Positions 37,157-61,440 of a DNA stretch of 64,000 nucleotides are shown in pieces. The first letter of the stretch is position 1; the number at the start of each line of letters is the position of its first letter. The DNA is from a bacterium (GTDB taxonomy: Bacteria; Hydrothermota; Tepidihabitantia; SM23-42; JAOAFX01). The notes under the pieces were generated by a model, which had not been told where the DNA came from, did no database searches, and was given only the letters and a program-made list of their open reading frames with translations. Where the stretch lies: contig JBNAVN010000001.1 of the NCBI GenBank assembly GCA_049700315.1, positions 4,776-68,775 of the forward strand. The letters run 5' to 3'. The translations under genes were made by a program, and so were the position numbers.

Positions 37157-37263
37157 AAAAAGTTGGTTAAATGGTTAAAAGGTTAGATATAAAAAAGAAT
37201 GGTATCTTGTTGTTGTTCCAATTATTTAACCAATTACCATTTAACCAAAAATAAGGAGGTCTT

Positions 37264-37941: not shown

Positions 37942-37990
37942 TGGTCAAATCGTCTGATAGTTGGATGGTTAAAATAGGAAGGAGTAGAAT

Positions 37991-38866: not shown

Positions 38867-38909
38867 ATGGTTAAATAAATTGAGTGAAATGGAAAAGGGT
38901 TGAATAAAA

Positions 38910-39008: not shown

Positions 39009-39618
39009 TCCCTGGATCTGGATTGGTGCATTCTTGACCATCGGAATTCTCTCTTTTCTGTATAAAGAGAATCCATTTTATAGATTTTGTGAGCATTTAT
39101 TTGTGGGTGTAGCAAATGGTTATGCCATTGCCGTAACCTGGCATCTGATATTGACACCAAGGCTCATTATGCCTTTGCAGGGCGGAAATTATCTTGTGCT
39201 CATTCCGATGATCATTGGTTTACTCTATTTTTGTAGGTTTATTCCCAAGGTATCCTGGCTTGTGCGGATTCCTATTGCGGTTGCCTTGGGATTCTCTTCA
39301 GGTGTGAGCATCCCTGCCATATTGCAGGCAGATATCATTAAGCAAATTCAAGGAACAGTTGTTTATCCCCATTTGTTTAACAACTGGCAGCAGGGATTAT
39401 GGGCAGTGCTAATATTCGTCGGTGTCATTGCCACGATATTCTTCTTCTTCTTTTCCAAAGAACATAAAGGAATTCTCAAACCGGTCTCCTATATTGGTAT
39501 TATCTTCATTATGGTTGGTTTTGGTGCATCTTTTGGTTATACAGTTATGGCACGATTATCACTACTTATCGGCAGATTACAATTTTTATTTGGCACCTGG
39601 CTGGGAATAATAAGATAA
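38998..39618 (+). CDS. Module copy 2, protein D
   Basis: 206 aa. Same motifs as copy-1 D. Confidence 0.8.
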   Translation: MSNDPWIWIGAFLTIGILSFLYKENPFYRFCEHLFVGVANGYAIAVTWHLILTPRLIMPLQGGNYLVLIPMIIGLLYFCRFIPKVSWLVRIPIAVALGFSSGVSIPAILQADIIKQIQGTVVYPHLFNNWQQGLWAVLIFVGVIATIFFFFFSKEHKGILKPVSYIGIIFIMVGFGASFGYTVMARLSLLIGRLQFLFGTWLGIIR

Positions 39619-41377: not shown

Positions 41378-41452
41378 ATATCACCATAACCACCACATTG
41401 TGGTTGGCTTTTCTGCTATTATTTTTTATTATCGCATCACCTCCTTTTTTCT

Positions 41453-44101
41453 TTATTTAACCAGAAGCACCTTAATAATGAAGTTATGTTCACCAGTATG
41501 AACCCGCACAAAATAAACGCCAGACGCGCAACCATCTGGTAACCACAGAAAATCATTATTGCCTTTGGATAATCTGCCTTGATAAATCGTTGCGGTTTTT
41601 CTACCGGTGATATCAAAAACTTCAATTGCCCCTGTTATTTCTTTGTCGATTGAAAATTGAATATGCACAGAAGAATTCAAGTTGGCGGGCTGGGGCAATA
41701 CCTTCAAAAAACCAGAGATGGACTCTTTGTAATTTTCTTCAACACCCACAACATCCTGTTTGATAATCAATAATCCAGAATTGCCATCAGCAAGATAAAT
41801 CAGATTATTTCTATCATCAAAACTCGTAGCAGTACTGACCGAGAGCATATATCCAACTTCTGCGGGTGCTGATGGACTGGCAACATTTATCACCCTGATA
41901 CCACCTGCTGTTCCGTCAGCAACAAAAATGTGATTGTTGAAATACTGGACACCAGAAGCAGTTCCTGGCGTATCAAGAGAACCTAACAATACAAGGGTAT
42001 CAGAGTTTGATACATCAAAGACCTTAATTCCAGCCGTGCCATCTGCAGCATATACATAATTGCCTGCTTTTGCCACACTATATGCTATTCCATTCGTATC
42101 ATAATATCCTGTTTCAACTGGATTGGAAGGGGTTGAAACATCTATTATTCTCACACCTTTTGTAGCATCTGCAACATAGGCAAAGTTATTGGAAACTACA
42201 ACATCATAGGCAAACCCTGCGGTGTTGAATGTCCCGAGAATTACTGGACTTGCAGGATTTTGCACATTGACAATGACCAATCCTTGAGACCGAGCACAAA
42301 CATAGAGCGTATTGCCTGAAACAAATAAACCAAGCACATCATCTGCTAAACTTAATTTTCCTATCTGAACAGGATTTGTTGGATTGGACAACGAAAGAAT
42401 TCTCAGGGTATCTTCACGATCACCAATATATAAATACTGGGATGAGCCGGTAATCGTGATTGAATTGCCTGGCAGGCTTATCTGATTTACATAATCAGGC
42501 AATGTTGAATCACTCACATCCAAGACAATCAAACCTGCAGGACCATCCACAATATATGCATAATTACCCAGAACCACAACATCATTTGCCCAGCCTGGTG
42601 TGTCATAATGTCCGATCAGATTAACATTTGTAGAGTGGTTCAATTCTACTACCCGAGACCTGCCAAAACTTCCATCTGCAGCAAGCCGGGTGTTACCTGA
42701 ATTCAGGGCACTAATATTCACCCGGAGTGAGCAACCAACAACATCTGTACAGGTCCAGACATATTTACCAGTATTGGGAACATTGTTGGCAATCAATGTC
42801 CAGCGCAATGAATCGTAACTATCAAGATTATTACCCTTTGACCACCATAGTTTCATATGATCAATCTCAGTTCCTTCAGTATGCCAGCGAATCGCATATT
42901 TTATATTCTTGAACATTACCGGTATATTGTAAGTATCACCACCCCTTGGATAATCCAGGAAAACATTATTTGGATTTGAACCACCAGGTACAAGGGTTAC
43001 GACATAATCATAAGAATACACTCCATTATAATATGTCCACAGGGGCCAGAGCGGTTCATTGTTATCCCAAGTTGTATGGACAATGACAAATGTGTCACTA
43101 CTGGTAATCTCGTAACCAACACCAGTAATGGAATGATTAATATAATCAGACATTGGTGGATACCAGTAATAAAGAACATTCCAGTGACAGGGCCGCTGAC
43201 CATCAATCTCAGTTTTTATCCAGGAGAAAACATATTGGTTCCAGTTGCCACCCTGTGGTGAGGTGGCAGATGTAAATGAATAACTATTATATGTATTCGC
43301 AACGGTTAGCATACCAGGTCTGATATTACCAATCGTTGTGCCACCGGTCAGAGTATCAGTATTCATTGCGATAGCAAGTTCACGATTCGTATTGGCACAA
43401 TCATTCCATTCATTCTCAGGGTTGTCCCAGTGTGTGAAAAAATGATCAACAAGTTTTCCATAACCCCGATAATCCCAGTACCAGAACATCATAGAAGCAG
43501 CAGTTGGTGAACATCCATACACCCAGTCAATAAAAGGCACCGAATCAACATAACCACTTTGCAGGATTCTAAAATCATCAATCTCCAGATATCGCTCCCA
43601 CTTCTGCCTTGTGAGCGATTCAAGATTTGGATCAGACTTGCATTTTTCCAATTCCTCATTTAAGCGAATCTGTCCGTTTCGGACATTTACCAACATCTTT
43701 TTTCCATCTACATCAAAACCTGCATATTCTTCCCCTGCTCCAAAATAGTAGTAATGCTGGAATACCGGCTCACCAGAAATTTGCTTTCTCAAATTATCCA
43801 ATGCACGGTTCAGGAATTTCTCACAATATGGTGCACTGTGATATATTTCACCAACCGGTGATGTAGTATATCTTGCACCCATTATAATGGTTATACTATC
43901 CTTTCCATCTTGAAATACATAACCATGAGCATTGGGGCTTTCATCAATGCCAAAATAGGTTATGACATTACTCAACCTGTATTCTGAACCATATCTCTGT
44001 TCAACGAACTTATATGCCAATGTTTCAATTTTTTCTCTGGGTACAAATTCAGAACCCAGAACAATGCCCGCCATAATCAACAAAACAGAAAATTTCTTCA
44101 T
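41453..44101 (-). CDS. C10-family (streptopain-like) cysteine peptidase with N-terminal Spi-inhibitor-like prodomain, LVIVD beta-propeller repeats and T9SS CTD
   Basis: Catalytic-Cys region VYGCSPTAASMMFWYWDYRGYG. Tandem repeats of the pattern YVADxxxGLxIxDVSNPxxP. C-terminus GVYFVRVHTGEHNFIIKVLLVK. Confidence 0.7.
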   Translation of the reverse strand: MKKFSVLLIMAGIVLGSEFVPREKIETLAYKFVEQRYGSEYRLSNVITYFGIDESPNAHGYVFQDGKDSITIIMGARYTTSPVGEIYHSAPYCEKFLNRALDNLRKQISGEPVFQHYYYFGAGEEYAGFDVDGKKMLVNVRNGQIRLNEELEKCKSDPNLESLTRQKWERYLEIDDFRILQSGYVDSVPFIDWVYGCSPTAASMMFWYWDYRGYGKLVDHFFTHWDNPENEWNDCANTNRELAIAMNTDTLTGGTTIGNIRPGMLTVANTYNSYSFTSATSPQGGNWNQYVFSWIKTEIDGQRPCHWNVLYYWYPPMSDYINHSITGVGYEITSSDTFVIVHTTWDNNEPLWPLWTYYNGVYSYDYVVTLVPGGSNPNNVFLDYPRGGDTYNIPVMFKNIKYAIRWHTEGTEIDHMKLWWSKGNNLDSYDSLRWTLIANNVPNTGKYVWTCTDVVGCSLRVNISALNSGNTRLAADGSFGRSRVVELNHSTNVNLIGHYDTPGWANDVVVLGNYAYIVDGPAGLIVLDVSDSTLPDYVNQISLPGNSITITGSSQYLYIGDREDTLRILSLSNPTNPVQIGKLSLADDVLGLFVSGNTLYVCARSQGLVIVNVQNPASPVILGTFNTAGFAYDVVVSNNFAYVADATKGVRIIDVSTPSNPVETGYYDTNGIAYSVAKAGNYVYAADGTAGIKVFDVSNSDTLVLLGSLDTPGTASGVQYFNNHIFVADGTAGGIRVINVASPSAPAEVGYMLSVSTATSFDDRNNLIYLADGNSGLLIIKQDVVGVEENYKESISGFLKVLPQPANLNSSVHIQFSIDKEITGAIEVFDITGRKTATIYQGRLSKGNNDFLWLPDGCASGVYFVRVHTGEHNFIIKVLLVK

Positions 44102-48255: not shown

Positions 48256-51027
48256 TTAAAATCCTAAACCAACACCGATTCGTATCCGGAAAGGACCATT
48301 GTAATTTGTTGGGTCAAGATAGTAGTCTGTTCTCGTTGCGATATATGCTGTCTTCATCTCCGGCGGTGTAATCAGTCCATCGTGGTTATAATCTGCCTGT
48401 GGTGAGTATCGGGTTGAGGCAATAGTGATATTACCAAACTGAGTGAGCGTAGGTTCCGCATCACCATGATTGTCCGGGTCGCCAGTAGTAGTGTAGACAT
48501 CAATGATTTGTTTTGTATTAAAGAGATTCTCAACCAGTGCGCTTAAAAGGAATTTCGCCGGACCAATCCTTATCAGTTTGCTCGCATTCATATCCACACC
48601 CCACCAACCAGGCATCCTTGCTGAATTTTCATCACCGAGTTTGTTCCCTCTCAAATCAACAGGTGTATATGGATGTCCTGAATGGTAGGACAAGACAAAT
48701 GAGGAATTGAAGTCCTGCAGGGGAATAAAGATGAAATCATGTGGTAAGGAAAGATCAAGATTGGCATTCACAATATTCCGCTCGTCAAAGTCAAGCCAGT
48801 AATCTATGACCGGAGGTTGCAAAGGTAATCCTGTGATCGGATCAATTCCGCCGTAGTAGAAATCATAATAGAATTCGCCCGCATAAGAAGCAGTTCCTTT
48901 TGCAAACTGAAGTGTGTAACTCAATCCAAATGCCCATACACTATTTGCCATTAGTTTGTCAAGCCGAATCTCAAATCCCTTGATATTTCCGTAGTCAACA
49001 TTGAAAAACTGGAAGTAAGGCATTGGCAGGGCAATAACCTGACGAATCTGCGATAGGTCATAGACATCCTTGAAATATGCAGTAAAGCCCAATACCACGT
49101 CCTGAGTGAACTGATTTTCAATACCAACTTCATACTGAACTGTTTTCTCTGGTTTCATAAAGATATTTCCAACGATGGTGTTCCCTCGTGAAAGTGCAAG
49201 CCTGATCACTGCGGTGTCAGTAGTGCCAAACATATCATCAAGTGCAGGCAACTGGAAATAATGTCCATAATTGAAACGGAATTTCATTCTTTCGGTTACC
49301 GGTAAAGAGAAACCAATTCTTGGTGAAACCCTATAACTCTTTTCTGCCCAGCTGAGTGTATCATTTTTGGGGTCATTCGGAACTTTGTAGGTGAAGCTAT
49401 TAGGATCAAAATAGTCAAATCTTATCCCAAGTCGCGCAATCAAACCTTCAAAATCCATTTTGTCCTGGAGATACGCAGCAACCTTGAATGGTGTTCGCTC
49501 ATAGTAATCCCAGAATGGATTTGCAACCCAGGGAAGGTTATTATCATAGTATTTCAGATTGTAGGTCACATAGTCAACGCCGGTTTTGAATTCGTGAATT
49601 TTACCGATTGCATGAGAAACATCAAATCTCGCCTGGATATCATCATTCTGCCAGTATCTCCAGACCCGGTAATCACCATAAGTGTAAAACCAGTTTTCAA
49701 TTCCATAAGGATTATGCCGCAATGCTAATTCTCCACTGTTGTTATATTCTGTATGATATTGCATTACACTATCAACAATCACATCTTTGGGAGGCAAATC
49801 ACCTTCAGTAAGGTACTCTATACAATGTTCTGCCTTGAGCCGGTAATCAGAATACCACTGATGGTCATTTTCCTGTTCCCAGGCATAATCCCTTGTTCCA
49901 TAGAGTCGGTCATAATGGGTCATTCCTGCTTTAAGAGAAAACAGGGTCTGGGCAGTGAGCATATAGTTGAATGTTGAAGAAAGTATGTAATTTTTTGTCC
50001 TGCTCATTGGTCTATTTTGAAAATACTTCAAACCCCCTGATGACCAGGTCACATACTGATCCCGTGAATTGAATCCACTCAGTGTAATTTTGCCTTTATT
50101 GTTCGGCATCGTATATGAGAGTCTTCCTTGTGCGCGATAAGTATTTCTTGGTGAAGGTACTTTGTATAATGCCTCGGCATAGGCATCGGTTAAGGTCAAT
50201 TCTCCAGAAAGGAAATATTTTATTCTATGAACTGCAGGTAGTGGACCACCCAGGGATAAATCATAAAAGTTATAACCAGTATTCAGTTTTTCCTTAAGTG
50301 CATCCATTGAGAAAATTTCATCGGTCAGATACCGGAAATTGCCGGATGGTTTTGTTCCACCTTCTTTTGTCACAACATTAATGATGCCTGAAAGTGCATC
50401 ACCATATTCTGCATCAAAACCGCCACTAACCACTGATACTTCTTCCACGGCTGAGGCGTTTATCTGAGTTGATAATGCACCAGTGTGTGGCACCTTGGTC
50501 ATAATACCATCAACATAGTAAGTGACTTCTTCGTTTCTGCCACCACGAATATGGGTTCCAAGATTGGATGTAGATACACCAGCTTGCAAGGTAACAACCT
50601 GGTTAATTGTGGTCACAGGTAAACGGGCAATGTCTTGCGAGGTTACTGAATGTCCACTCTGCACCTGAGAAGCAACAATCGGTGGTTTCTCAGCAACGAC
50701 CGTGACTTTTTCAACTTCAATCACAGTTGGTTTCAATCGGAAATTCAGATTGGTGGTCTGGTCAGCATTGACAATCACCTGGGTATAGGTATATGGATCG
50801 TAACCCAAATATGAAGCAGTAACCACATAGTTTCCTGCAGGCACATAGAGAATCACATAATCACCCTTTTCATCAGTTGCACCACCAAGCTCTGTACCTT
50901 CAATAATCACATCCGCGCCAATCAAAGGTTCACCGGTTTCAGCGTCTCTTACCTTACCGGTAATCTTTCCATATTCAGCACCAAATAAGAGTGCGCCGGC
51001 AAGGATTAAGGCCCATAGCTTTTTCAT
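48256..51027 (-). CDS. TonB-dependent receptor with N-terminal carboxypeptidase-regulatory-like domain
   Basis: CarbopepD_reg-like GKITGKVRDAETGEPLIGADVII. Plug region. 923 aa barrel ending in a terminal aromatic (GVGLGF). Confidence 0.85.
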   Translation of the reverse strand: MKKLWALILAGALLFGAEYGKITGKVRDAETGEPLIGADVIIEGTELGGATDEKGDYVILYVPAGNYVVTASYLGYDPYTYTQVIVNADQTTNLNFRLKPTVIEVEKVTVVAEKPPIVASQVQSGHSVTSQDIARLPVTTINQVVTLQAGVSTSNLGTHIRGGRNEEVTYYVDGIMTKVPHTGALSTQINASAVEEVSVVSGGFDAEYGDALSGIINVVTKEGGTKPSGNFRYLTDEIFSMDALKEKLNTGYNFYDLSLGGPLPAVHRIKYFLSGELTLTDAYAEALYKVPSPRNTYRAQGRLSYTMPNNKGKITLSGFNSRDQYVTWSSGGLKYFQNRPMSRTKNYILSSTFNYMLTAQTLFSLKAGMTHYDRLYGTRDYAWEQENDHQWYSDYRLKAEHCIEYLTEGDLPPKDVIVDSVMQYHTEYNNSGELALRHNPYGIENWFYTYGDYRVWRYWQNDDIQARFDVSHAIGKIHEFKTGVDYVTYNLKYYDNNLPWVANPFWDYYERTPFKVAAYLQDKMDFEGLIARLGIRFDYFDPNSFTYKVPNDPKNDTLSWAEKSYRVSPRIGFSLPVTERMKFRFNYGHYFQLPALDDMFGTTDTAVIRLALSRGNTIVGNIFMKPEKTVQYEVGIENQFTQDVVLGFTAYFKDVYDLSQIRQVIALPMPYFQFFNVDYGNIKGFEIRLDKLMANSVWAFGLSYTLQFAKGTASYAGEFYYDFYYGGIDPITGLPLQPPVIDYWLDFDERNIVNANLDLSLPHDFIFIPLQDFNSSFVLSYHSGHPYTPVDLRGNKLGDENSARMPGWWGVDMNASKLIRIGPAKFLLSALVENLFNTKQIIDVYTTTGDPDNHGDAEPTLTQFGNITIASTRYSPQADYNHDGLITPPEMKTAYIATRTDYYLDPTNYNGPFRIRIGVGLGF

Positions 51028-51038: not shown

Positions 51039-52073
51039 TTAATTAACCCTTACGGGTATAAGCCAGAATCTTGCTAATAATTGACTGGCAGGTTTCACAT
51101 AGATCAATCCGTCGGTTACGATCACTTCAATAACAAGATTTTTCACACCTGTGCCACTGATTCCAATCTTTCCTGAACCACCTGGCAATTGAACCTTCTT
51201 GCCATCCTGAATCGCAAAGAATGTGCAGAGATCACTCGTAATTGTCCCGGAAAGAGTAATTGCGATTGTCACTGAGTCACCAGCACTATACTCAAGTAGC
51301 GAATCTATTGAGCGGAAACGGTTCATTGCATGATGCGGATACAGTGTATCGGTATTACTCGCCCATACTGTATCAATTCTGGATGTGTTCTGGGAAGTCA
51401 ATATTGCGGTATAAATGTACGGAATACTGGCAGCACGATTCGGTAATCCATAATTACCGTAGGAAATTCTTTTCAAAATCCATTCCCGTGGTTCCTTGAT
51501 TTTCAACACTGAATCGCCAAGTTCTTCATCCCATACTTTTTCTTTTACTGGTTCCACATACAGATGACGCAGTCCTTCTACAGTGATGGTATCATAAGAA
51601 TAATATCCACCAGTGCTATCCACGATCACAATGTCAAGTTTTTTGTTTGTATCACCCTGCCAGAAATAATAACCTTTGTACAAAGTATCATAATGGACCT
51701 CCTGTATGAGGTTAAATGTATCGTAAAGATACACTGTGCAGGTCGTATCTTTTGTATACCAGAGGTCCTTAAAACGGGAACTTGATGCAATCTTGTCATG
51801 AAGACTATCTACATGCTGTTTAACAAGCACTGATTCAGTCTTAAAGTATGAATCTGCCACTGGAAATGTAACTGCTGCAAGTGTTATCGGAATGTAACTA
51901 TCCAGAAAGACATCGTCGGTCTTAAGAAACTCCGAATGTGCATCAAGCACAGCATTGATCAATGTGTCATCTCTTGGTGTCCCGTCGTAGAAACCTTCTG
52001 GTGGCTCATTACCACAACTAACAAATGCTAATGCCAATATTGCCAACAGGCAAAGCCAGTTCATCCTATTCAT
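51039..52073 (-). CDS. Hypothetical lipoprotein
   Basis: Lipobox LAFVSC. 344 aa. Confidence 0.5.
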   Translation of the reverse strand: MNRMNWLCLLAILALAFVSCGNEPPEGFYDGTPRDDTLINAVLDAHSEFLKTDDVFLDSYIPITLAAVTFPVADSYFKTESVLVKQHVDSLHDKIASSSRFKDLWYTKDTTCTVYLYDTFNLIQEVHYDTLYKGYYFWQGDTNKKLDIVIVDSTGGYYSYDTITVEGLRHLYVEPVKEKVWDEELGDSVLKIKEPREWILKRISYGNYGLPNRAASIPYIYTAILTSQNTSRIDTVWASNTDTLYPHHAMNRFRSIDSLLEYSAGDSVTIAITLSGTITSDLCTFFAIQDGKKVQLPGGSGKIGISGTGVKNLVIEVIVTDGLIYVKPASQLLARFWLIPVRVN

Positions 52074-52201
52074 TTATGCCTCCTTTGCTTTGTTTCTTCA
52101 ATATTTATTTTTTGTCTCTTTTTTGCTTTTATTTCTCACCCCCTTTTTTTGCTAATATTATATATCTATTATAATAAAAAAAAAGAATTTGTCAAGGGTA
52201 T

Positions 52202-52834
52202 TCATTTGAATTTGAACTCTATCTTTCTAAAAACCCAAACCCTGACAAGTTTGTCCCGTTGTTTTGCCGGCGTAAACTTATATTTCCACACGCTTGCAAC
52301 TGCTGCTTCATCAAGGAGTTGATTACCGCTGGATTTGACAACCTGAACATCAATCACACTACCATCAATATTCACCAAGAATTTCACCTGCAGACTACCT
52401 TCAATGCCTGCCCTTTTTACCAGTTCAGGCCATTCAGGGGGTGGCATTGATATGGGCTGTGGTTTTACCTCTACTTTAAAATAGGGAACCACTTCAATCT
52501 CCGGACCTGTAGGCTGGGTTCTTATAATGTCTTCCCGGAATTCAGTCGCTGCAATTGTTTCAACTGCTTCTTCAGCAACTTCGGTTGCGGCTGCTGCCAC
52601 TGCAACCTTTGGTCTTTCCACTGGTGGTGGCTCTTCATATTTCTCAATCTCAGCGGAGATTTGCTCAACCATCGTTACAATCTCTTTTCTCAACTTATAA
52701 GGTTCAACCTCAGCATAGGGTAAAAACAGAAATAACAGGATTAGAATGATTATGCCCAGGAGCATACCAGTGCGGAAATATACACCATACATCAATTTAT
52801 GGTCGCGCATATTAACCTCCAAATTCAGTGGCAA
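52202..52834 (-). CDS. tonB: Energy transducer TonB family protein
   Basis: N-terminal TM, Pro/Glu/Ala-rich linker, C-terminal TonB domain (GIEGSLQVKFLVNIDGSVIDVQVVKSSG). Confidence 0.8.
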   Translation of the reverse strand: MPLNLEVNMRDHKLMYGVYFRTGMLLGIIILILLFLFLPYAEVEPYKLRKEIVTMVEQISAEIEKYEEPPPVERPKVAVAAAATEVAEEAVETIAATEFREDIIRTQPTGPEIEVVPYFKVEVKPQPISMPPPEWPELVKRAGIEGSLQVKFLVNIDGSVIDVQVVKSSGNQLLDEAAVASVWKYKFTPAKQRDKLVRVWVFRKIEFKFK

Positions 52835-53231
52835 AAGTTATCTTAAATGCCCGAGACTCTTTCAGTTGATCAAGAACAACATCAACAGTGCCATATTCAA
52901 TATTTTCATCAATGTTGAGAATCGTAACCAGCTCTGGATTTTCTGCAATCTTGGGGAGCATTTTTGTACTCACCCTTTCCTTTGGAACAAGACTATCATC
53001 AATAAACACCCTGCCGTTATTATCAACCCAGACATGGGTGATATTTCTTCGGATCAAGATTCTTTCAGTAGATTTTGCCTTGGGTAAAATAAGTTTAAGA
53101 TTGAGTGCAGTTGCTCTGAACACGGTTGTCACCATAAAGAAAAGAATCAACAAGAATGCAACATCAGCAGTTGATGCAGTGGGAATGTCCGGTGTTTTTG
53201 TAAATCTTCTTATAATACTCTTACGCATCAT
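52812..53231 (-). CDS. exbD: Biopolymer transporter ExbD/TolR (paralogue 2)
   Basis: 139 aa. N-terminal TM with ADVAFLLILFFMVTTVF motif. Confidence 0.8.
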   Translation of the reverse strand: MMRKSIIRRFTKTPDIPTASTADVAFLLILFFMVTTVFRATALNLKLILPKAKSTERILIRRNITHVWVDNNGRVFIDDSLVPKERVSTKMLPKIAENPELVTILNIDENIEYGTVDVVLDQLKESRAFKITFATEFGG

Positions 53232-53692
53232 TCCTCACTGGTTGGTATTAAACTTATCTTATTTGCCCTCAACTCCCTGCCATCCTGGGTGATAACCCGA
53301 CACAGTTTTATCTGGTCAAGCACTGAAATCATTGCCTGATATCTTGCATCCTTACTTGTTCTCAATGAAACCACAAGCAGGGTATCCCGTTCAAGAAGTT
53401 TTTCTTCAACTATCCGGCGGACTTCAGAGTATTGCTGTGGAGAAATATCAATTCCATCATATCCGGAAGCCTTTAATTTCAATGCGCCTTCAGGATTGAT
53501 CAGAATTGAAACAACATTTTCTGGTTTGACCTTGGTCTCGGTCTGGGATTTTTCAGGCAGGAGCATTTTTATACCTTTTTCCCGGGTAAATACTGTGGTT
53601 GTCATAAAGAAGATGATTATCAAGAATGCGATATCGCCCATTGAGGCAGTAGGGATGATGGCGCTTATTTTTTTCTTCGCCCTCAACTCCAT
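53228..53692 (-). CDS. exbD: Biopolymer transporter ExbD/TolR (paralogue 1)
   Basis: 154 aa. MGDIAFLIIIFFMTTTVF. Confidence 0.8.
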   Translation of the reverse strand: MELRAKKKISAIIPTASMGDIAFLIIIFFMTTTVFTREKGIKMLLPEKSQTETKVKPENVVSILINPEGALKLKASGYDGIDISPQQYSEVRRIVEEKLLERDTLLVVSLRTSKDARYQAMISVLDQIKLCRVITQDGRELRANKISLIPTSEE

Positions 53693-54316
53693 CTATTTTT
53701 TCCTTTTCTGATAATGTTCAATCATATAGTCAATCAAGCCCGCAGCAACCTCTTCCATATCCTTTGTGTATCCATCAACCTTACCGGAGAAGAGAATGTG
53801 CAATATTGCCAGGGGGGTTGCGATAATCAAACCCCATTTGGTTGTAATCAATGCCTCAGAAATACCACTGGCAACGATTGTTGGTTCAACCTCGCCTGCT
53901 GCTGCTATTGCTGCAAATGCACGAATCATTCCTGTAACAGTACCCAAAAATCCTAAGAATGGTGCAACCGTAGTCAAACCTGCTAATAAAGCCATACCCC
54001 GGTCCAAAAATCCCAGTTCAATTGCTGCAGCACGGGCAGCAACCTCTTCCATTGCATCCTTACCTTTGTCTGCCTTTTGCAGAATCTCTCTGGCAATTTT
54101 TGCGGCCGGAGATGTTGTATGGTCACACAGCGCAATACCAGCATCAACACCCTGGGCATCAATTGTAGAAATGAGTTTCTCCAGGAAACTCTTGGGATTT
54201 AATCTTATCTTTATCAAAAGTGAAAAAAGCCGCTCAAGTATTATGCCCAGTGCCAGTATAATGCACACCAATAATAACCACATCACACCACCACCAATTG
54301 TAAATTCCCTAACCAT
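53693..54316 (-). CDS. exbB: MotA/TolQ/ExbB proton-channel family protein
   Basis: 207 aa. Three TM helices. Conserved GLLGTVTGMIRAF region. Confidence 0.85.
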   Translation of the reverse strand: MVREFTIGGGVMWLLLVCIILALGIILERLFSLLIKIRLNPKSFLEKLISTIDAQGVDAGIALCDHTTSPAAKIAREILQKADKGKDAMEEVAARAAAIELGFLDRGMALLAGLTTVAPFLGFLGTVTGMIRAFAAIAAAGEVEPTIVASGISEALITTKWGLIIATPLAILHILFSGKVDGYTKDMEEVAAGLIDYMIEHYQKRKK

Positions 54317-54378
54317 AAGATAAGCCTCCTTTCAATTATTATTATAGATTATATTAAATTTGCTGACAATGTCAAGCC

Positions 54379-54729
54379 TCATTTTGAACTTGCACTATAA
54401 TAGAGTACTCCGCCGATAAGCGGGAAAAGACCCGCACCAAAAAACAGAAAACTCTCATACCGTGCAAGCACGAGAGAACGCACAATCAAATCAAAAAGGT
54501 CACCTGGACCGGCAACGCTCAGAAGTGGAAAATAGAAGACAATACGGTAGATATGGAATACGGCAACTGCAATCAGAAATACACAACCGATCACAGGGAA
54601 AATCCATATTCCTTTACCACCAATTAAATTCAACAATCTTTTCAGAATCAAACCAAAGATTATCAATGAAACAATGGCGAGCAGTATCGCCACCATGAAG
54701 ATGACTTCTGCCAAAATATCAGCCCTCAT
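54379..54729 (-). CDS. Small polytopic membrane protein (hypothetical)
   Basis: 116 aa with three hydrophobic helices. Confidence 0.45.
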   Translation of the reverse strand: MRADILAEVIFMVAILLAIVSLIIFGLILKRLLNLIGGKGIWIFPVIGCVFLIAVAVFHIYRIVFYFPLLSVAGPGDLFDLIVRSLVLARYESFLFFGAGLFPLIGGVLYYSASSK

Positions 54730-54805
54730 TATACCTCCTTGTTAACATGGTTAACCAATATAGTCCAGCGTCTCAACCCAAACCCAATGACCATTTTGTA
54801 GTACT

Positions 54806-55174
54806 TCATTTCCCTTTAGTGACTCCATAGAATCTCAAATTTGCTACGAGAGAGAGAATACCTGAAAGAAAGAATAGACCATATGCAAGGTAGTTAATGC
54901 CGCCCTTCGGAAGCATCATTTTTCCACCAATGCCGCAGAATATCAATTGGATCAATGCAAAAAGTAAAATACCTGTGGGTGCAATCACCATAAACTGCCA
55001 GTTTGTTTTTTCACCAAGCACAATCTCATATCTGCGGGCAATTATGCCCAAAAATATGAACGCAAACCATAACAATACCGCACCCAGAACCAATACATAG
55101 TTCGGGAAAATTGCCAGCGCTTGATAAGTAGAAGGTTCAATCCCGAATGGTGCGGAAAATAAAATCAATCCCAT
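54806..55174 (-). CDS. Small polytopic membrane protein (hypothetical)
   Basis: 122 aa with four hydrophobic helices. Confidence 0.45.
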   Translation of the reverse strand: MGLILFSAPFGIEPSTYQALAIFPNYVLVLGAVLLWFAFIFLGIIARRYEIVLGEKTNWQFMVIAPTGILLFALIQLIFCGIGGKMMLPKGGINYLAYGLFFLSGILSLVANLRFYGVTKGK

Positions 55175-55204
55175 AAAACCTCCTTTTCCTAAAACTCAGA
55201 TGTA

Positions 55205-55792
55205 TCACTTCAGTTTCCCCAAAAGTTTATTCGTCAAATCTTTGCCTTTTGTCGGACCAACAATCATACCTGCTGCCTTGCCCAGGGCAAAGATGAATCT
55301 CCTTATGTCTTCTTCATAAAGTTCATCTGCTTTTATTCTCTGCGCCTTGAGCTGATTCTGATATACCCTTTCTGTAAAATCACCCAAATAATCCTGAATA
55401 ACTGCTTTTAGTTGGTCAAGAAATTCTGGCGCAAATTTCTCTTTTGGTCTTTCTGCTTCAACAACCTCGGTCTTTTGCTTGGTTCTGATCTCCTTAATTG
55501 CATTCAAGATAGTATCCAGTATTTCTGTCTGGGTTGTAGCATAAATGTGTCCAATCATTTCATTTTCAGCAATGTCACAAAGCAGACTTTGATTACTACC
55601 AACGATTTCAATGGTATCAATCTTAATACCACCTACTGCACCAATGGATTCAAAAAGAACAGTTCCAGTTTGTGAAAACTTTGACTTTTTCTGTTCACCA
55701 CCCTTAGAAGTAATCGTCTCTCCATCTTTCATTACAATAAAAGGCAAACCCAAACCTCGTTCTTCAATCTTGTTCAGTATCTCTTCATTCAT
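55205..55792 (-). CDS. Hypothetical protein, possibly roadblock/LC7-like N-domain
   Basis: 195 aa. The segment GAVGGIKIDTIEIVGSNQSLLCDIAENEMIGHIY weakly resembles the roadblock fold. Confidence 0.4.
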   Translation of the reverse strand: MNEEILNKIEERGLGLPFIVMKDGETITSKGGEQKKSKFSQTGTVLFESIGAVGGIKIDTIEIVGSNQSLLCDIAENEMIGHIYATTQTEILDTILNAIKEIRTKQKTEVVEAERPKEKFAPEFLDQLKAVIQDYLGDFTERVYQNQLKAQRIKADELYEEDIRRFIFALGKAAGMIVGPTKGKDLTNKLLGKLK

Positions 55793-55803
55793 CTCTTACC
55801 CCC

Positions 55804-56589
55804 TTATATCTGCTTCATTTTTTCAATAACTGCCTGGACTTTTACCCGTGCCTGAGATGATCCCATTTCTTCAACTGCCTTTTTAACAAGAAAGTCAATC
55901 ACAGTACGCAGTATCTGCACAATATCATCCTCTTTTTCAGGTGGCGGAGTCTGCTTGAATTCTATTTTTTCACCAATAATACCTATCATTGGCAATATAT
56001 CAGTAGCAATCACCCCAAGCCCCTGATTCAGAATACCGAGCCAGTGTTCCTTTTTCCCACCACTTCCAAATTCTTCAACCAGCAGGTTTATCTGGGTCAA
56101 TTTAGAATTAATGCCCCGGGACAATTGTATTTCAACCTTTGGTGGTACCGGCGGAGGTTTGACTTCTTCAACAACCTTCTCTTCAATTACCTTTTCCTCA
56201 ACCTTCTCCTCAATTTTTTCTTCAACCTGAATTTCAGGTTTTTCTTCAACCTTTTCTTCTATCTTTTCCTCTTTGACCGGAACCATCTGTTCCTTAATTC
56301 TTTCAATAATATCCAACGGTCTTTCATCTCGTACCACCTCAACTCCAAGGTATTTGCCGCTATGGATAAAAATTATCAAACGATTTGCTCCATAACACAT
56401 AGAAACAAACTTTATCTCACCTAAGTTCAGTGTGTTTTTTATTACCTCAGCAGCCGAGGAGAAAAATGCAGTAAGGTCACCAAGGGGCGAAGTTGATGAA
56501 CCCTTGACTTTTTCTATTGAACCATCCTCGGCATTAACCACTGCATAATTGATTATTCCCGGAATCTTATCTAATATTTCCATTCCCAA
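55804..56589 (-). CDS. Roadblock/LC7 (MglB-like) domain protein with E/K-rich repeat linker
   Basis: N-terminal ~100 aa roadblock-like. Then (EEKxE)n repeats and PPPVPP. Confidence 0.55.
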   Translation of the reverse strand: MGMEILDKIPGIINYAVVNAEDGSIEKVKGSSTSPLGDLTAFFSSAAEVIKNTLNLGEIKFVSMCYGANRLIIFIHSGKYLGVEVVRDERPLDIIERIKEQMVPVKEEKIEEKVEEKPEIQVEEKIEEKVEEKVIEEKVVEEVKPPPVPPKVEIQLSRGINSKLTQINLLVEEFGSGGKKEHWLGILNQGLGVIATDILPMIGIIGEKIEFKQTPPPEKEDDIVQILRTVIDFLVKKAVEEMGSSQARVKVQAVIEKMKQI

Positions 56590-56596
56590 CTCCTTT

Positions 56597-57433
56597 CTAT
56601 TTCAATCCTGCATAGAGTTCATCCATCTTCTTTTTGAATAGCAATTTTCCATAAAGCTGTGGTCCTTCGCTGTTTACGAATTGCTCAAATTTTTTTCTGA
56701 ACTTATCAATCTGCTCCTGAGTCAATGGATTTTGCACAGTAATCTCCAGGGTATCTTCATCAACCTTAAATGCTGAACCCAATGATTGATTTTCGGGTTC
56801 CATTTCCGACCATCTTCTGTACCAGTTTAATCCATTCTTCCCAAATGTTTTGAAAAAAACATTAAAATAATGAATCAAAACCGCCATCAATCTTTCCGCT
56901 TCTCTGGGGTCGTAAATAAGCCCCTGTTCTTTGAGCCAGATAATCGTCTTTATTGTTTCATAGCCACCTAATTGAGATTGGGCAATGATTTCATTTAATG
57001 TTCTCTTGCCATCAACCATTGCCAGAACCTGCCAATCTGTACGCCGGAGCGCAACTGCCGAAGGTAATTCTTTTGTTGATTTTGCCAATACCGCATCCCG
57101 CGGTGGCAAGCGGTCTTTGATCTTTTCAAATTCAACACGCCTCTTTTCAATATTTTCATTTAACTTTCCCACATCTTCAGATATTGTCTGTTCAATTGCC
57201 CTTATCCCCGTTTCAAATGTCGCATGTTCAAGCCGGGCAAGTGTAAGATTAAGAAGTGATTCAAATCCCTTTTCCATACCATCAGTGGCATGAACAATAT
57301 ATCCTTCCTTCACATATACTTCACCATTCAATTCTCCACTCACCTTTAACAGACCAGTCTTTTTCAATTGAACAAGAAAATTTAATATATCAAAAAGATT
57401 AAATTCTTTCAAATTAATTTCAATATCTATCAT
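56597..57433 (-). CDS. DUF4388 domain protein
   Basis: N-terminal LFDILNFLVQLKKTGLLKVSGELNGEVYVKEGYIVHA matches the DUF4388 signature. Confidence 0.6.
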   Translation of the reverse strand: MIDIEINLKEFNLFDILNFLVQLKKTGLLKVSGELNGEVYVKEGYIVHATDGMEKGFESLLNLTLARLEHATFETGIRAIEQTISEDVGKLNENIEKRRVEFEKIKDRLPPRDAVLAKSTKELPSAVALRRTDWQVLAMVDGKRTLNEIIAQSQLGGYETIKTIIWLKEQGLIYDPREAERLMAVLIHYFNVFFKTFGKNGLNWYRRWSEMEPENQSLGSAFKVDEDTLEITVQNPLTQEQIDKFRKKFEQFVNSEGPQLYGKLLFKKKMDELYAGLK

Positions 57434-58051
57434 TTATATCACTCCTAACCAGTTATGCAAAAGAAAATAGACTCTACCGATAAACAACGATACACGAGCC
57501 ATAATTGTATAACCGAAAGATGCGCCAAACGATACCATCATAAACCAGATACCGATTTTTGCCCCAGTGCCCAGGGGACCTTTGTGTTCTTTGGAAAAAT
57601 AGAAATAAAGGAGTGTAAAGATTACACCAAGAATAATCAAAATATTGGAAAATGTAGTAAACACAGAGATATTTTTCAAAGGTAGAAAGGTTGCCTGTAA
57701 TTGCGGGAAAATATCACCTTGAACAATCTGAGTTATGGATACGGCCATCGCTATGCCCATGGTAAATGTGAGGGGAATGCGAATCATCCAGGAGATTTTG
57801 GGGATGAGCGGAGCAAACATCAAAAAACCTATAAAAATGGGAAAGATATTGTACCATTGTCCCTTCTGAAACAAGGGTTCAAAGAGGTTGGGCCAGGCAA
57901 AATCATACCAGAGCACGACTGCCCAATATCCTGCCGAAACACCAACAAAAATATTTTCAGCAATCTTATAAAAAGGATTATCCTTGTACAAAAATGAGTA
58001 TATTGCCAGGGTCAGCAATGCAGCAATCCATATACCTATTATATTTATCAT
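57434..58051 (-). CDS. Module copy 3, protein D
   Basis: 205 aa. FLYKDNPFY, SWMIRIPL, SKEHKG, VMARVSLFIGR. Abuts the DUF4388 gene with no gap. Confidence 0.8.
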   Translation of the reverse strand: MINIIGIWIAALLTLAIYSFLYKDNPFYKIAENIFVGVSAGYWAVVLWYDFAWPNLFEPLFQKGQWYNIFPIFIGFLMFAPLIPKISWMIRIPLTFTMGIAMAVSITQIVQGDIFPQLQATFLPLKNISVFTTFSNILIILGVIFTLLYFYFSKEHKGPLGTGAKIGIWFMMVSFGASFGYTIMARVSLFIGRVYFLLHNWLGVI

Positions 58052-58869
58052 TTTTTTCTCCGCTGGTAAACCAATATCACATTGCCAAGCACAATAAATC
58101 CAACAAGGAGTAGATGAACAATAGATTGGGCATCCATTCCCCTCAAACCTCTGCCCTTTCTGTCAACAAGTGTTTCATATTCTGCGGCACCTTTTAATCC
58201 GCCCAAAAGCCCAACCAACTGTCCTGAACTCAGATAGGCATATTGTTGTGGTGCCATAATCGCAGTAGTTGCACCACAAATCGGCACACCGTAACGGGCG
58301 TGGAAATAAATTATCCAGTGGAGAATACCAGGATCACCCGCAGAAAAGGTCATGACGGCCTTGATGTCCTTTGCTGATTTTACTGCCCTGCCCAAAGCAA
58401 ATGAGTCTATCAGAATACCTTGATAATCAACTTTTATCACATCTGAAAAACTGCGCCCCAAACTCAAAAGCATTACTGCACCACCAGGCCGATAACCAAC
58501 ATTGATATAGTCTTCACCATATCTTTTGTTATAAATGCGGGCAAGACTGCTCAGGGCAATATTTCCAAGTTCACTACCAGCAGGCCATAAGCCCATCATA
58601 TATATTTTCAAATCTCTGCGAAAACAATGTTCAATTACTGCTTCAGTTGCCGGATAAAGTTCTGCCTCACTGCCCGGGTCATAATCAGTAGAAATAAGTA
58701 TTATAGAACCGCGGGGCAATGATTCAATTTTATCATAGACATTTTTAACCGGTTTCGTAATATCAACCGGTAGATTCAATGGCACAATCATCGGAATGAT
58801 AACTGCCAGTGCAACGAGAAGAAAAATAATTCTACGATCAAGACGGGCAAGAGATTCAATGATATTCAT
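58048..58869 (-). CDS. Module copy 3, protein C
   Basis: 273 aa. LARLDRRIIFLLVALAV, DYDPGSEAELYPATEAVIEHCF. TM at both ends. Confidence 0.8.
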   Translation of the reverse strand: MNIIESLARLDRRIIFLLVALAVIIPMIVPLNLPVDITKPVKNVYDKIESLPRGSIILISTDYDPGSEAELYPATEAVIEHCFRRDLKIYMMGLWPAGSELGNIALSSLARIYNKRYGEDYINVGYRPGGAVMLLSLGRSFSDVIKVDYQGILIDSFALGRAVKSAKDIKAVMTFSAGDPGILHWIIYFHARYGVPICGATTAIMAPQQYAYLSSGQLVGLLGGLKGAAEYETLVDRKGRGLRGMDAQSIVHLLLVGFIVLGNVILVYQRRKK

Positions 58870-58900
58870 AATTTAGTGCTTCCGCAAAACGATAGACTTT

Positions 58901-59524
58901 TTATTCATGCCCTCCTCCCATATAACTTCTCTCAATCCCTAAAAGAACGCGCAATGCCATGGATATTAATCCTAAGTCAATGCCAAACAAGATACCCCGC
59001 TTTGCTGCGGTATTGGGAACCTGCATTATCCACTCAACAAGGTCAGGAAATTTGTGCCAGATCAAATAGCCAATAGGAATTCTCCCAATCATCACAATTA
59101 CCGCGGCGGTCAGAAGCAGTGTTGCCTCAGGTGTCTTTGCCCTGAATGCCCTGAATGATGCTGACGCAACAAAAAAGGCAAGCAAAGAAAACATTGTTGC
59201 ACCAAGTGGAACCTGAAAATTTTCAAAGAGGTACAAAAATATCCTTGAATCCCTGCCACCAATGAATCCAGCACCAAGCATAATACCAAGAAAGAAAAGT
59301 AGAATTATGCTGTATTGCCAGTCCCGTAATTTGCGTTGAATTTTATCAATGTTTATTCTTATTAGATTGAATATCCCAATAAAGACAAAAAACGCAGCAA
59401 CACCCTGATACCACAACTGAAGCAATTGAGAACTATCCTGGGCAAATTTCGCAGGGATAAAAAAGGTTATCAGCATATAAAATCCACAACCGAAAACGAT
59501 TATCAAAGGTATAATTATCTTCAT
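58901..59524 (-). CDS. Module copy 3, protein B
   Basis: 207 aa. ASASFRAFRAK, EWIMQVPNTAAKRGILFG, LGIERSYMGG. Confidence 0.8.
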   Translation of the reverse strand: MKIIIPLIIVFGCGFYMLITFFIPAKFAQDSSQLLQLWYQGVAAFFVFIGIFNLIRINIDKIQRKLRDWQYSIILLFFLGIMLGAGFIGGRDSRIFLYLFENFQVPLGATMFSLLAFFVASASFRAFRAKTPEATLLLTAAVIVMIGRIPIGYLIWHKFPDLVEWIMQVPNTAAKRGILFGIDLGLISMALRVLLGIERSYMGGGHE

Positions 59525-60600
59525 TCTATCGTATTGAAAAGGCTTATAAAAAACTGCCAGTTCAAAAGCTGGCTTAAAACCCCAATGATTATTACACTGA
59601 TGAATATCAACTTTCCGAGATCCTGCCCTTTTAATGAACCTAACTGAACTGGTTCTTGAGAAAGATAAGCACTGGCTGCATACAATTCTTCACCAAGCAG
59701 TGTAAAATCACATGCCGCTACGAAGAATGGTAATTGATCAGACATTGCAGTGCCGGCAATCTGAATTGCCCCTGTTGAATGACCGGTTTCAGCAAGAATC
59801 AATGACTCAGCATAGAATGTGCCAAGGTATAAATTTGTTGCTGGTCTTTCACGAACCATAATACCATCCACTGCTGATACATAAGCAAATTGGTCATCTG
59901 TTATATAACGGATATTATCTGAATTATACCAATCAGAACGACCCATTCTGGTTGCTGATTCCTTTACAACCTGTTGTGCCATCGTCATTGCCATTGAATG
60001 ACAGGTCGGTACATATAAGGGTGTACCATATTCAGCAGTCTTCTCCGCAACCCGTGACAGAATGCTCATTGAGGCAATTGTCTGAGGGTCGTCAATATCC
60101 ATAATTCCCGGTACATATAAAACAGGCTTTCCCATTTCGGTTGCCCTGCCAATTGCCTCTTCAATGGCACTGAGCGCCGGTATTTTTCTGATAAACAAAT
60201 TACCACCTTTCCTTGCTTGGCTAATGTAAAAGATAACTGACCCAAAAAGGATTATTATGCATATTGCCAGCGGCAGGCGATACAAATTGAAATATTGAAC
60301 AACAGGTTTTATAGGACCGACAAGGTTGGAAAAAACCGTGTTATTATCAACGATACCAGCAATTTTGTAATAGTATGTTGCACCGGGTATTAAGTTATTA
60401 TCCTGATATGATTTCTCTTTCCCGTCAACCTCATCAATTTTCTCAAAAATTCCTTCAGGTTCAACACCCCTGAATATTTCAATCGTTCTATACTCAGTGT
60501 CAAACTGCCATTTCAGGGTTATGCTTGAACCATCATCATTGGGCGTGTCAAAAACCCTTAAATCAATGTTATATATAAGAAACAAACTAAATAAAAACAT
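59521..60600 (-). CDS. Module copy 3, protein A (one FN3-like domain + TM + conserved cytoplasmic domain + C-terminal TM)
   Basis: 359 aa. RKIPALSAIEEAIGRATEMGKPVLYVPG, AESLILAETGHSTGAIQIAGT, QLPFFVAACDFTLLGEELYAASAY. Confidence 0.8.
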   Translation of the reverse strand: MFLFSLFLIYNIDLRVFDTPNDDGSSITLKWQFDTEYRTIEIFRGVEPEGIFEKIDEVDGKEKSYQDNNLIPGATYYYKIAGIVDNNTVFSNLVGPIKPVVQYFNLYRLPLAICIIILFGSVIFYISQARKGGNLFIRKIPALSAIEEAIGRATEMGKPVLYVPGIMDIDDPQTIASMSILSRVAEKTAEYGTPLYVPTCHSMAMTMAQQVVKESATRMGRSDWYNSDNIRYITDDQFAYVSAVDGIMVRERPATNLYLGTFYAESLILAETGHSTGAIQIAGTAMSDQLPFFVAACDFTLLGEELYAASAYLSQEPVQLGSLKGQDLGKLIFISVIIIGVLSQLLNWQFFISLFNTIE

Positions 60601-60630
60601 CTAATAATTTTATTCAAAATAAATGCAATG

Positions 60631-61440
60631 TCAAGCATTTGTTCCACGCCACTTTCTGAAATACTTGATCGCACTAATCAAATGAAACCAAAAGAATCTA
60701 TTAAACAGTAAATCAATTATTTTTGTTTTTGCCGACCATCTGGAATATTGATGACGAAATTTTGCTTCGGGGAAATAGACCACTCTATATCCGTGATTTT
60801 GAAATCGGCGACACCAATCAACATCTTCAAAATATAGAAAAAATCTCTCATCCATTAAGCCAACCTTTTTTATCAAAGAATCCTTGGTCATCATCGCCGC
60901 ACCTAAGACCCAATCCACTTCTCTTGTTGTTTTGTGGTCAAAATCCAGCATCAGGTATCTTATCATTTCTTTTCTACCAAAAGATAGTTCTTTTAAAAAG
61001 GTTCGTCTAATAAGGGGCGTTAGAACCCCTGGAAAACGGAAACAAGAATTTTGAATTGTGTTGTCAAAATTCAGCAACTGTGGTGCCAGAATACCGATAT
61101 TTTCATCCATTTCAAAACATAATATCATTTTTTTAATTGCACCAGGCATTATCAGGACATCAGGATTGATGATTAATAGGTATTTACCATGGGCACTTTT
61201 TATTCCCTGATTCACAGCCCGGGCATACCCAAGATTCTTACTATTTTCTATCAATTGAATGGTTAAAATTTGTTCGTATTCTCTTACTAAATATTCCAGA
61301 GAAACTGTCGCAGTATTGTTAACAACAACAACCTCAGCATTAAAACCCGATAATACATCCTTAAGATTTTCCAGACAGTCTCTTAACACCCGGGCTGGAT
61401 TATAGTTAACAATTATTACTGAAATCATCTTTTTTTTCAA
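60631..61440 (-). CDS. Glycosyltransferase family 2 protein
   Basis: MISVIIVNYN...DxD region (YFEDVDW). 269 aa. Confidence 0.8.
   Translation of the reverse strand: MKKKMISVIIVNYNPARVLRDCLENLKDVLSGFNAEVVVVNNTATVSLEYLVREYEQILTIQLIENSKNLGYARAVNQGIKSAHGKYLLIINPDVLIMPGAIKKMILCFEMDENIGILAPQLLNFDNTIQNSCFRFPGVLTPLIRRTFLKELSFGRKEMIRYLMLDFDHKTTREVDWVLGAAMMTKDSLIKKVGLMDERFFLYFEDVDWCRRFQNHGYRVVYFPEAKFRHQYSRWSAKTKIIDLLFNRFFWFHLISAIKYFRKWRGTNA

Follow-up and report, generated by a model that had tools for sequence, protein, structure and literature searches.

Results

The cassette and its three copies

The minus strand of a 64-kb stretch of a WOR-3 genome (contig JBNAVN010000001.1; the whole 64,000 nucleotides analysed are called the window below) carries four adjoining genes, A3 (59521–60600, 359 amino acids [aa]), B3 (58901–59524, 207 aa), C3 (58048–58869, 273 aa) and D3 (57434–58051, 205 aa). 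They make up copy 3 of a four-gene cassette. The other two copies lie on the plus strand, copy 1 (A1, B1, C1 and D1) at 31494–34746 and copy 2 (A2, B2, C2 and D2) at 35033–39618. All four copy-3 open reading frames (ORFs) were found at precisely the positions, and on the strand, given by the initial annotation, which a model had made from the letters of the DNA and which had described copy 3 as an inverted, diverged version of the module. The two motifs that it quoted, GHSTGAIQIAGT and ACDFTLLGEELYAASAY, are both present in A3.

All-against-all BLASTP of the three copies confirmed that copy 3 is homologous to the others in all four proteins. A3 is 47% identical to A1 (E 2e-105) and 45% to A2 (E 6e-91), B3 is 45% and 46% identical to B1 and B2, C3 is 32% and 33% identical to C1 and C2 (E ~1e-49), and D3 is 48.5% and 48.8% identical to D1 and D2. 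The corresponding values between copies 1 and 2 are 53% for A, 61% for B, 49% for C and 60% for D. Each pair of counterparts is matched at E 1e-49 to 1e-105, well beyond chance, with the genes in the same order on one strand, and no match across the four families is better than E 0.2. Copy 3 is co-linear with the other two, inverted, and the most diverged, so that it forms the outgroup. A2 (35033–37156, plus strand) is 707 aa long because of about four extra FN3-like repeats ahead of the usual FN3 and DUF6754 domains.

Proteins of the cassette

A3, A1 and A2 belong to family DUF6754 (Pfam PF20539), with scores of 391, 379 and 378 bits against a gathering cutoff (GA) of 27; for A3, E is 2e-117. 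The topologies of A to D were derived from hydropathy and charge distribution, and that of A3 also from an AlphaFold2 (AF2) model (pLDDT 75). A3 consists of a short hydrophobic N-terminus, an FN3 domain (residues ~13–97), a transmembrane (TM) helix (106–130), the alpha/beta DUF6754 domain and a C-terminal TM helix. The FN3 domain would be periplasmic, and the alpha/beta domain, which comprises about 190 aa after a basic stretch, is predicted by the positive-inside rule to be cytoplasmic. The best-conserved stretch of A is residues 238–298, which includes the motifs of the initial annotation and is modelled by AF2 with low confidence. Many invariant Glu, Asp and Gln residues lie within 238–314. 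When the complete A3 model was used in structure searches, the matches were to FN3 only.

B3 is predicted to be a polytopic membrane protein of about 6 TM helices, and D3 one of about 5–6. C3 is predicted to have an N-in TM helix, a soluble domain of ~210 aa, a second TM helix and a basic C-terminus; the soluble domain would lie in the periplasm. No Pfam or NCBIfam model matched B, C or D. Profiles built from 40–46 homologues of the DUF6754 domain, B, C and D were compared with all PDB sequences, and the best E values, 0.08–1.1, belonged to unrelated proteins. Comparisons by hhalign of B with D, and of the A domain with C, gave no significant relationship. In the Pfam, NCBIfam and PDB profile searches neither B, C and D nor the DUF6754 domain had detectable similarity to known transporters or respiratory complexes (NQR/RNF, ABC, TRAP). 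An NQR/RNF-like complex had come to mind because B, C and D are sized like NqrD, NqrE and NqrC and because the N-terminus is lipoyl-like in c1, one of the families found beside cassettes of other phyla; the idea was rejected since no profile similarity to the solved NQR/RNF subunits was found.

Genes downstream of copy 3

The gene that follows D3 (56597–57433, minus strand) encodes a soluble protein of 278 aa with a PATAN (DUF4388/PatA_N) domain. The initial annotation had named it a DUF4388 gene, and its product indeed scores 36.9 bits against PF14332 (GA 25), covering profile positions 3–47 of 122; its orthologues carry a precomputed PatA_N label. It is 31% identical to its homologue in another cassette locus, L011, whose DUF4388 match is fuller. 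No Response_reg match occurs in the 278 aa, so that the protein has no receiver domain and is not a PatA-type response regulator.

The next two genes, both on the minus strand, are X (55804–56589, 261 aa; the NCBI start is the ATG at 56583) and Y (55205–55792, 195 aa). They had been described as roadblock/LC7-like. For Y the description is confirmed at the fold level, as its N-terminal domain (residues 2–112) has the alpha-beta-beta-alpha-beta-beta-beta-alpha fold of the Roadblock/LC7 superfamily and can be superposed on MglB or LC7; a linker and a three-helix C-terminal domain (123–194) follow. The best structural match of Y is MglB and the second-best CvnB, and the identity to MglB, 12%, is too low for mapping functional residues. 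For X the support is indirect. X has an N-terminal domain of ~100 aa, a Glu/Lys-rich linker and a conserved helical C-terminal domain, and the first of these is probably roadblock-like: four X homologues are named "Roadblock/LC7 domain-containing protein" in UniRef/NCBI, the X homologue of L011 (25% identical over its full length) matches Robl_LC7 with E 7e-4 and 19.7 bits, under the GA of 23, and a similar N-terminal pattern is counted as a third support. The Pfam model Robl_LC7 (PF03259) matched neither X nor Y, nor any of 42 Y-family and 45 X-family members.

Searches of PDB by sequence and profile gave no credible match for X or Y, as for the cassette proteins, and hhalign found nothing significant between X and Y, whole or by domain, or between Y and the PATAN protein. 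Both families are small (190 proteins for X, 108 for Y) and confined to the lineages of PATAN-linked loci. The C-terminal domain of Y (LGDFTERIY.NQLKAQRI...FALGKAAGMIIGPSKG..LTNKLL) is better conserved than its roadblock domain, and residues 123–194 are the sole part of Y that can be aligned to the L011 homologue. One fragment of the Y family is labelled "gas vesicle protein" by JGI.

Two small membrane proteins complete the series on the minus strand. S1 (54806–55174, 122 aa, about 3–4 predicted TM helices) is 71–75% identical in orthologous loci, and S2 (54379–54729, 116 aa, about 2–3 TM helices) 59–66%. No relationship between them was detected by BLASTP.

Transcription units

A promoter-like site, TTGACA-N16-TAAAAT (11/12), is located at 60607–60634 on the minus strand. 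The GT2 gene upstream ends in a stop codon that its -35 hexamer overlaps, and its -10 hexamer ends 6 nt before the ATG of A3, so that the A3 mRNA is probably leaderless. An equivalent 11/12 site stands 5–6 nt before the start of A in three orthologous loci (L001, L002 and L003), where the upstream genes are different. The start of B3 overlaps the stop of A3 by 4 nt, as does the start of D3 the stop of C3. The TAA of D3 directly abuts the ATG of the PATAN gene (0 nt gap), with GGAG ~10 nt upstream of that ATG. From the start of A to 300 nt inside the PATAN gene, no promoter of at least 11/12 was detected in the window or in L001, L002 and L003. No terminator was found between A3 and the PATAN gene, and the D3/PATAN junction has no hairpin; terminator-like hairpins in the 51–62 kb region are not more frequent than in shuffled sequence. 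A perfect sigma-70 promoter, TTGACA-N16-TATAAT (12/12), lies at 54348–54375 (minus strand) in the gap between S2 and an ExbB gene, 31 nt upstream of the latter, and the same gap of L002 and L003 also holds a perfect 12/12 site.

The junctions, the absence of internal promoters and the conserved promoters before A and ExbB support a single predicted operon of nine genes, A-B-C-D-PATAN-X-Y-S1-S2, in which A3 is the first and S2 the last. The co-transcription of copy 3 with the DUF4388 gene and the two genes after it, as the initial annotation proposed, is therefore upheld. The longer string of 52202–60600 falls into at least three units, as perfect promoters precede both ExbB and a lipoprotein gene further downstream (52168–52195, minus strand, 12/12, ahead of the lipoprotein and receptor genes). 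The placement of copy 3 at the head of a long minus-strand string is right in that A3 opens a transcription unit, and imprecise in that genes on the same strand (GT2, RsmG and others) continue further upstream.

The window contains 8 perfect TTGACA-N16/17-TATAAT sites versus 0.1 expected, nearly all of them just upstream of ORFs (489–516, 4752–4780 [-], 8594–8621, 14552–14579, 20242–20269, 27504–27531 [-], 52168–52195 [-] and 54348–54375 [-]), and this excess indicates that the organism uses the consensus. Four sites of at least 11/12 end 5–6 nt before an ATG (at 522, 4746, 16848 and 60600), which suggests that leaderless mRNAs may be frequent in this WOR-3 organism. Between D1 and A2, a hairpin with a perfect 16-bp stem and T/A runs on both sides (34841–34875) resembles a bidirectional terminator, so copies 1 and 2 may be separate transcripts; no strong promoter precedes A2.

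Orthologous loci and phylogeny

The closest homologues of A3 come from candidate division WOR-3, and its orthologues in other WOR-3 genomes are 63–87% identical to it. The order A-B-C-D-PatA_N-X-Y is repeated in seven loci with varying upstream neighbours. These are one complete WOR-3 genome and two metagenome contigs (L001 to L003), a Stahlbacteria metagenome-assembled genome and WOR-3 bin53 (L030 and L050), and the loci in which Y is most distant from that of the window (L084 and L085), which include a TA06 bacterium. After Y usually come S1 and S2, then ExbB-ExbD-ExbD-TonB-lipoprotein-receptor. The predicted nine-gene operon is conserved among WOR-3, TA06 and Stahlbacteria, its order recurring in eight loci besides that of the window. 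L011 has a homologous trio of PATAN, X and Y genes, 4.5 kb downstream of a cassette.

In the neighbour-joining tree of DUF6754 domains, A1 and A2 fall in a clade of WOR-3 and Stahlbacteria, which is grouped with the cassettes in third position of triple arrays in Zixibacteria and Ignavibacteria. A3 belongs to another clade, together with its PATAN-linked orthologues. Within the Zixibacteria and Ignavibacteria arrays, the cassettes of each position, first, second or third, make up a clade of their own, from which it follows that the paralogy is older than the phyla. The position of A3 outside the A1/A2 clade, together with 63–87% identity to its orthologues versus 45–47% to A1 and A2, agrees with the earlier suggestion of old specialisation rather than recent duplication.

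The complete genome departs from this order beyond the operon. In L001 (CP070686.1), from 15907–16127 on, sugar-nucleotide and glycosyltransferase genes stand after the operon in the place of ExbB, and the only gene call for S2 is one of 72 aa. The L002 contig, whose A protein is identical to that of L001, retains both S2 and ExbB. The contrast suggests either a rearrangement or a difference in assembly.

The adjacent Ton genes

Downstream of the operon, again on the minus strand, lies a Ton energiser operon (52202–54316) in which ExbB, ExbD and the TonB C-terminal domain occur together, all above GA. It is composed of ExbB (53693–54316; MotA_ExbB, 89.7 bits), two ExbD genes (53228–53692 and 52812–53231; 64.1/72.9 bits) and TonB (52202–52834; TonB_C, 70.6 bits). 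A predicted lipoprotein (51039–52073) follows, and then a TonB-dependent outer-membrane receptor (TBDR) of 923 aa (48256–51027), identified by matches to Plug (35.3 bits), TonB_dep_Rec_b-barrel (98.5 bits) and an N-terminal CarboxypepD_reg (73.6 bits); L003 and L050 have these genes in the same order. Beside the Ton/TBDR genes of the window no SusD-like gene was found, and the Rfam scan gave no riboswitch or other RNA near them; two tRNAs elsewhere were the only hits.

Cargo proteins of the type IX secretion system (T9SS), with Por_Secre_tail C-termini, are encoded at 39734–44101 and 25650–27317, both on the minus strand. One of them, of 882 aa, has LVIVD repeats along with a peptidase C39-like domain, and another has Omp28 and MAM domains. 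A 987-aa protein with no assigned family and a FadL/UPF0164-like barrel are encoded between T9SS cargo and the TBDR.

The cassette in other phyla

A single search returned more than 8000 A-type proteins, with ~2500 clusters (50% identity) below 1e-30, and a scan of one genome per species located at least 588 cassette loci. Carriers include Zixibacteria, Fermentibacteria/Aegiribacteria, Cloacimonadota, Stahlbacteria, WOR-3, Ignavibacteria, Acidobacteriota, Eisenbacteria and Edwardsbacteria, among others. The order A-B-C-D is kept in nearly all of 83 loci, which represent about 12 phyla, and cassettes commonly stand in tandem, two or three to an array. The DUF6754 part, always C-terminal, is ~50% identical across phyla; the periplasmic N-terminus of A is variable and consists either of 1–5 FN3 repeats or of a BamB-like PQQ propeller. 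At 9902–11035 of L076 lies an orphan DUF6754 gene that B, C and D do not follow; its contig also holds a complete cassette (L018).

A Ton gene lies within 7 kb in 16 of the 58 loci with enough flank, in various arrangements. For instance, the order is ABCD-TBDR-ExbB-ExbD-ExbD-TonB in Fermentibacteria/Aegiribacteria and ABCD-(LplA)-TBDR in Eisenbacteria-type loci, and ExbB stands beside divergent upstream genes in Zixibacteria and Ignavibacteria. The commonest neighbours outside WOR-3, directly upstream or divergent, are an actin-fold ATPase of the GlmL family (~620 aa), a 374-aa protein with a lipoyl-like N-terminal motif and a 134-aa protein; a PsbP-like protein of 255 aa sometimes joins the trio. 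The ATPase matches PF13941, scores below the GlmL equivalog cutoff and adjoins the cassette in 15 loci. The trio is found upstream of A in nine loci and divergent in five. By tblastn, none of the GlmL-like, c1, c4 and c8 neighbour families is present in the window. On one side of the cassette region, gcvH-gcvPA-gcvPB occur (upstream in seven loci), and on the other a gene for lipoate-protein ligase, LplA (downstream in three), in several lineages; these flanks may reflect either old synteny or a functional link.

Discussion

The gene content and conservation of the copy-3 operon lead us to a proposal that we judge evenly poised between right and wrong: copy 3 is that paralogue of a four-subunit inner-membrane platform which is conserved among orthologous loci and coupled to regulators, acting in a regulated trans-envelope system with Ton. 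A, B, C and D would together form the platform, with about 16 TM helices. On its periplasmic side it would present protein-interaction modules, namely A's FN3 domain (in relatives, a BamB-like propeller or several FN3 repeats) and the ~210-aa domain of C, through which partners in the envelope would be contacted, with the highly conserved alpha/beta domain of A facing the cytoplasm. The PATAN protein and the X-Y roadblock pair may dock there from the cytoplasmic side, switching the platform or positioning it, by analogy with PATAN at the type IV pilus motor and with the roadblock dimers of the MglB and Ragulator systems. The PATAN domain has been reported as an inner-membrane-localised output domain that binds PilB1 and PilC's N-terminal domain, which are cytoplasmic parts of the pilus motor (bioRxiv 10.1101/2021.06.11.447907). 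S1 and S2 would be accessory membrane subunits. The platform could work with the adjacent Ton energiser and the outer-membrane barrel as a regulated trans-envelope route, the likeliest role of which would be to take up or handle a large substrate. Copies 1 and 2 would then be unregulated or otherwise specialised forms of the platform.

Several points weigh against this proposal. The assembly of A to D, and the docking of PATAN, X and Y on A, are inferred from gene order only, and the assignment of X to the roadblock proteins is indirect. The conserved residues 238–298 of A, where AF2 confidence is low, could be membrane-embedded instead of cytoplasmic. The Ton genes are separately promoted, so their link to the cassette is one of neighbourhood and not of a shared transcript. 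In 42 of the 58 loci no Ton gene lies within 7 kb, the genomes of the FCB group are rich in TBDRs, and common descent inflates the count of Ton co-occurrence. The recurrent partner in many phyla is instead the GlmL-like ATPase with two proteins of no known function.

A broader version of the proposal takes in the other phyla, and we put it forward tentatively, as possible and short of probable. A to D may be the inner-membrane core of an unrecognised trans-envelope machine of FCB-group candidate phyla, paired with a TonB/ExbBD motor and a TBDR-like barrel. It would be steered by a GTPase-independent PATAN and roadblock-heterodimer module in WOR-3, TA06 and Stahlbacteria, and elsewhere by the GlmL-like ATPase, and the three ancient paralogues would be distinct, co-operating versions.

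Alternatively, the roadblock proteins may depend on a GTPase after all. As GAPs or GEFs of the MglB type, X and Y could regulate a Ras-like GTPase whose gene lies elsewhere in the genome, and the operon could be a GTPase-controlled polarity module attached to ABCD. We consider this rather unlikely; it is compatible with the other readings. Tandem roadblock pairs are known from MglB/MglC and RomX/RomY, which the X-Y pair recalls; roadblock domains also serve as GTPase-independent dimeric scaffolds, e.g. LAMTOR and dynein LC7. MglB is the best structural match of Y, yet the identity is only 12% and the Pfam Robl_LC7 model gave no match. PATAN genes regularly adjoin homologues of MglA and MglB (bioRxiv 10.1101/2021.06.11.447907). 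Nevertheless, no cognate Ras-like GTPase (MglA) accompanies the roadblock gene here: the 64-kb window contains no ORF of at least 100 aa with the Walker A motif G....GK[ST], none of the eight orthologous loci examined has a GTPase gene, and no GTPase family is represented among the genes of L001 to L003, L084 and L085. The "small-GTPase module" of the initial annotation remains an idea and not a finding.

ABCD could also be a self-contained inner-membrane transporter or ion-translocating complex, in which the acidic, re-entrant-looking motifs of A form the site, PATAN, X and Y regulate, and the proximity of Ton genes is mere synteny. This seems to us unlikely. The ~50% identity across phyla and the invariant Glu, Asp and Gln residues in A 238–314 would suit such a site, and the low confidence with which 238–298 is modelled as a soluble domain is in agreement with it. 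Ton genes are absent nearby in most loci and have their own promoters, and tandem paralogous cassettes resemble transporter families of differing specificity. However, neither a transporter family nor a solved transporter was found to resemble these proteins, and a periplasmic FN3 domain or BamB-like propeller, along with a two-TM protein bearing a large periplasmic domain, is atypical of solute carriers. The recurrence of Ton genes in at least four arrangements in various phyla also speaks against mere synteny.

A machine for surface motility or adhesion of the Myxococcus Agl-Glt type is somewhat less probable still. Here the ExbBD-like motor, TonB-like links, barrels and ABCD platform would be joined to a PATAN/roadblock polarity module, with the GlmL-like actin-fold ATPase of other phyla in a role comparable to MreB. 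We know of no report of motility in WOR-3. The roadblock fold of Y, with MglB as its best match, the adjacent ExbB, ExbD, TonB and outer-membrane barrel genes, the actin-fold ATPase beside the cassette in 15 loci and the T9SS cargo genes just downstream are all consistent with such a machine, and the variable periplasmic FN3 and propeller modules would fit a scaffold spanning the periplasm. PATAN proteins are moreover tied to motility machines (bioRxiv 10.1101/2021.06.11.447907). Against this stand the lack of an MglA-like GTPase in the 64 kb, where no Walker A ORF was found either, and in the orthologous loci, the lack of homology of A to D to Glt, Agl, Gld or Por proteins in Pfam, NCBIfam and PDB, and the nature of the downstream barrel, an ordinary Plug-containing TBDR typical of uptake.

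Finally, a recent duplication, or a pseudo-cassette in decay, beside unrelated genes by chance is so improbable an account of copy 3 that it was rejected, for although copy 3 is the most diverged of the three, its four ORFs are intact and of the same lengths as in the orthologues, the invariant residues of the family are kept, and the identity of the WOR-3 orthologues, the same nine-gene order and the distinct ancient clade all contradict decay or recency.

Whichever role the platform has, three of the four cassette proteins belong to no described family, despite their wide spread and strong conservation. The cassette occurs in a dozen mostly uncultivated phyla, often in three ancient copies per genome, and its recurring Ton, PATAN/roadblock or actin-fold ATPase neighbours suggest a major unstudied envelope function in anaerobes of sediments and bioreactors. 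In the literature library that was searched, nothing turned up on DUF6754/PF20539, nor on roadblock, ExbB, TonB and gliding together. The PATAN, roadblock and Ton parts are of known kinds and DUF6754 is catalogued; the cassette is without a characterised relative by the tests run.

The operon nevertheless bears likeness to several known systems. The Agl-Glt gliding machinery of Myxococcus likewise combines a homologue of the proton motor, TonB-like coupling, barrels and roadblock regulation, and shares with the cassette loci of other phyla an actin-fold ATPase. It differs in that no homology of A to D to Glt was detected, MglA is absent from the window and the barrel is a normal TBDR. The conservons of Streptomyces (CvnA-D) likewise place a roadblock protein with membrane proteins in paralogous operons of multiple copies, whereas the copy-3 operon has no sensor kinase, DUF742 protein or GTPase, and its membrane proteins are others. 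Ton uptake systems with SusC-like TBDRs, as in the FCB group, share the ExbB, two ExbD, TonB, lipoprotein and Plug/CarboxypepD_reg TBDR genes that lie directly downstream of the operon and recur in other phyla. Here the Ton genes have promoters of their own, and their presumed partner in the inner membrane is no known permease, whether of the ABC, the MFS or another kind.

Within the MglB/Roadblock-LC7 superfamily (MglB, MglC, CvnB, LAMTOR2/3 and the C-terminal domains of Rag), Y stands apart by its 12% identity, the lack of a Robl_LC7 match and of a GTPase nearby, and its added three-helix C-terminal domain, which is more conserved than the roadblock domain itself. The systems of PATAN with MglA/MglB (Makarova et al. 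2006; Synechocystis PixE/PixG; M. xanthus SgnC) likewise set a soluble PATAN protein beside roadblock proteins and the genes of an envelope machine. Unlike these, the copy-3 operon is without a receiver domain, an MglA GTPase or type IV pilus genes, X and Y both carry an extra conserved helical C-terminal domain, and the partner is the ABCD cassette. A coupling of PATAN and roadblock proteins with neither a GTPase nor pilus genes fits no described system, and the copy-3 operon offers a concrete case for roles of PATAN and roadblock proteins outside the pilus and GTPase systems.

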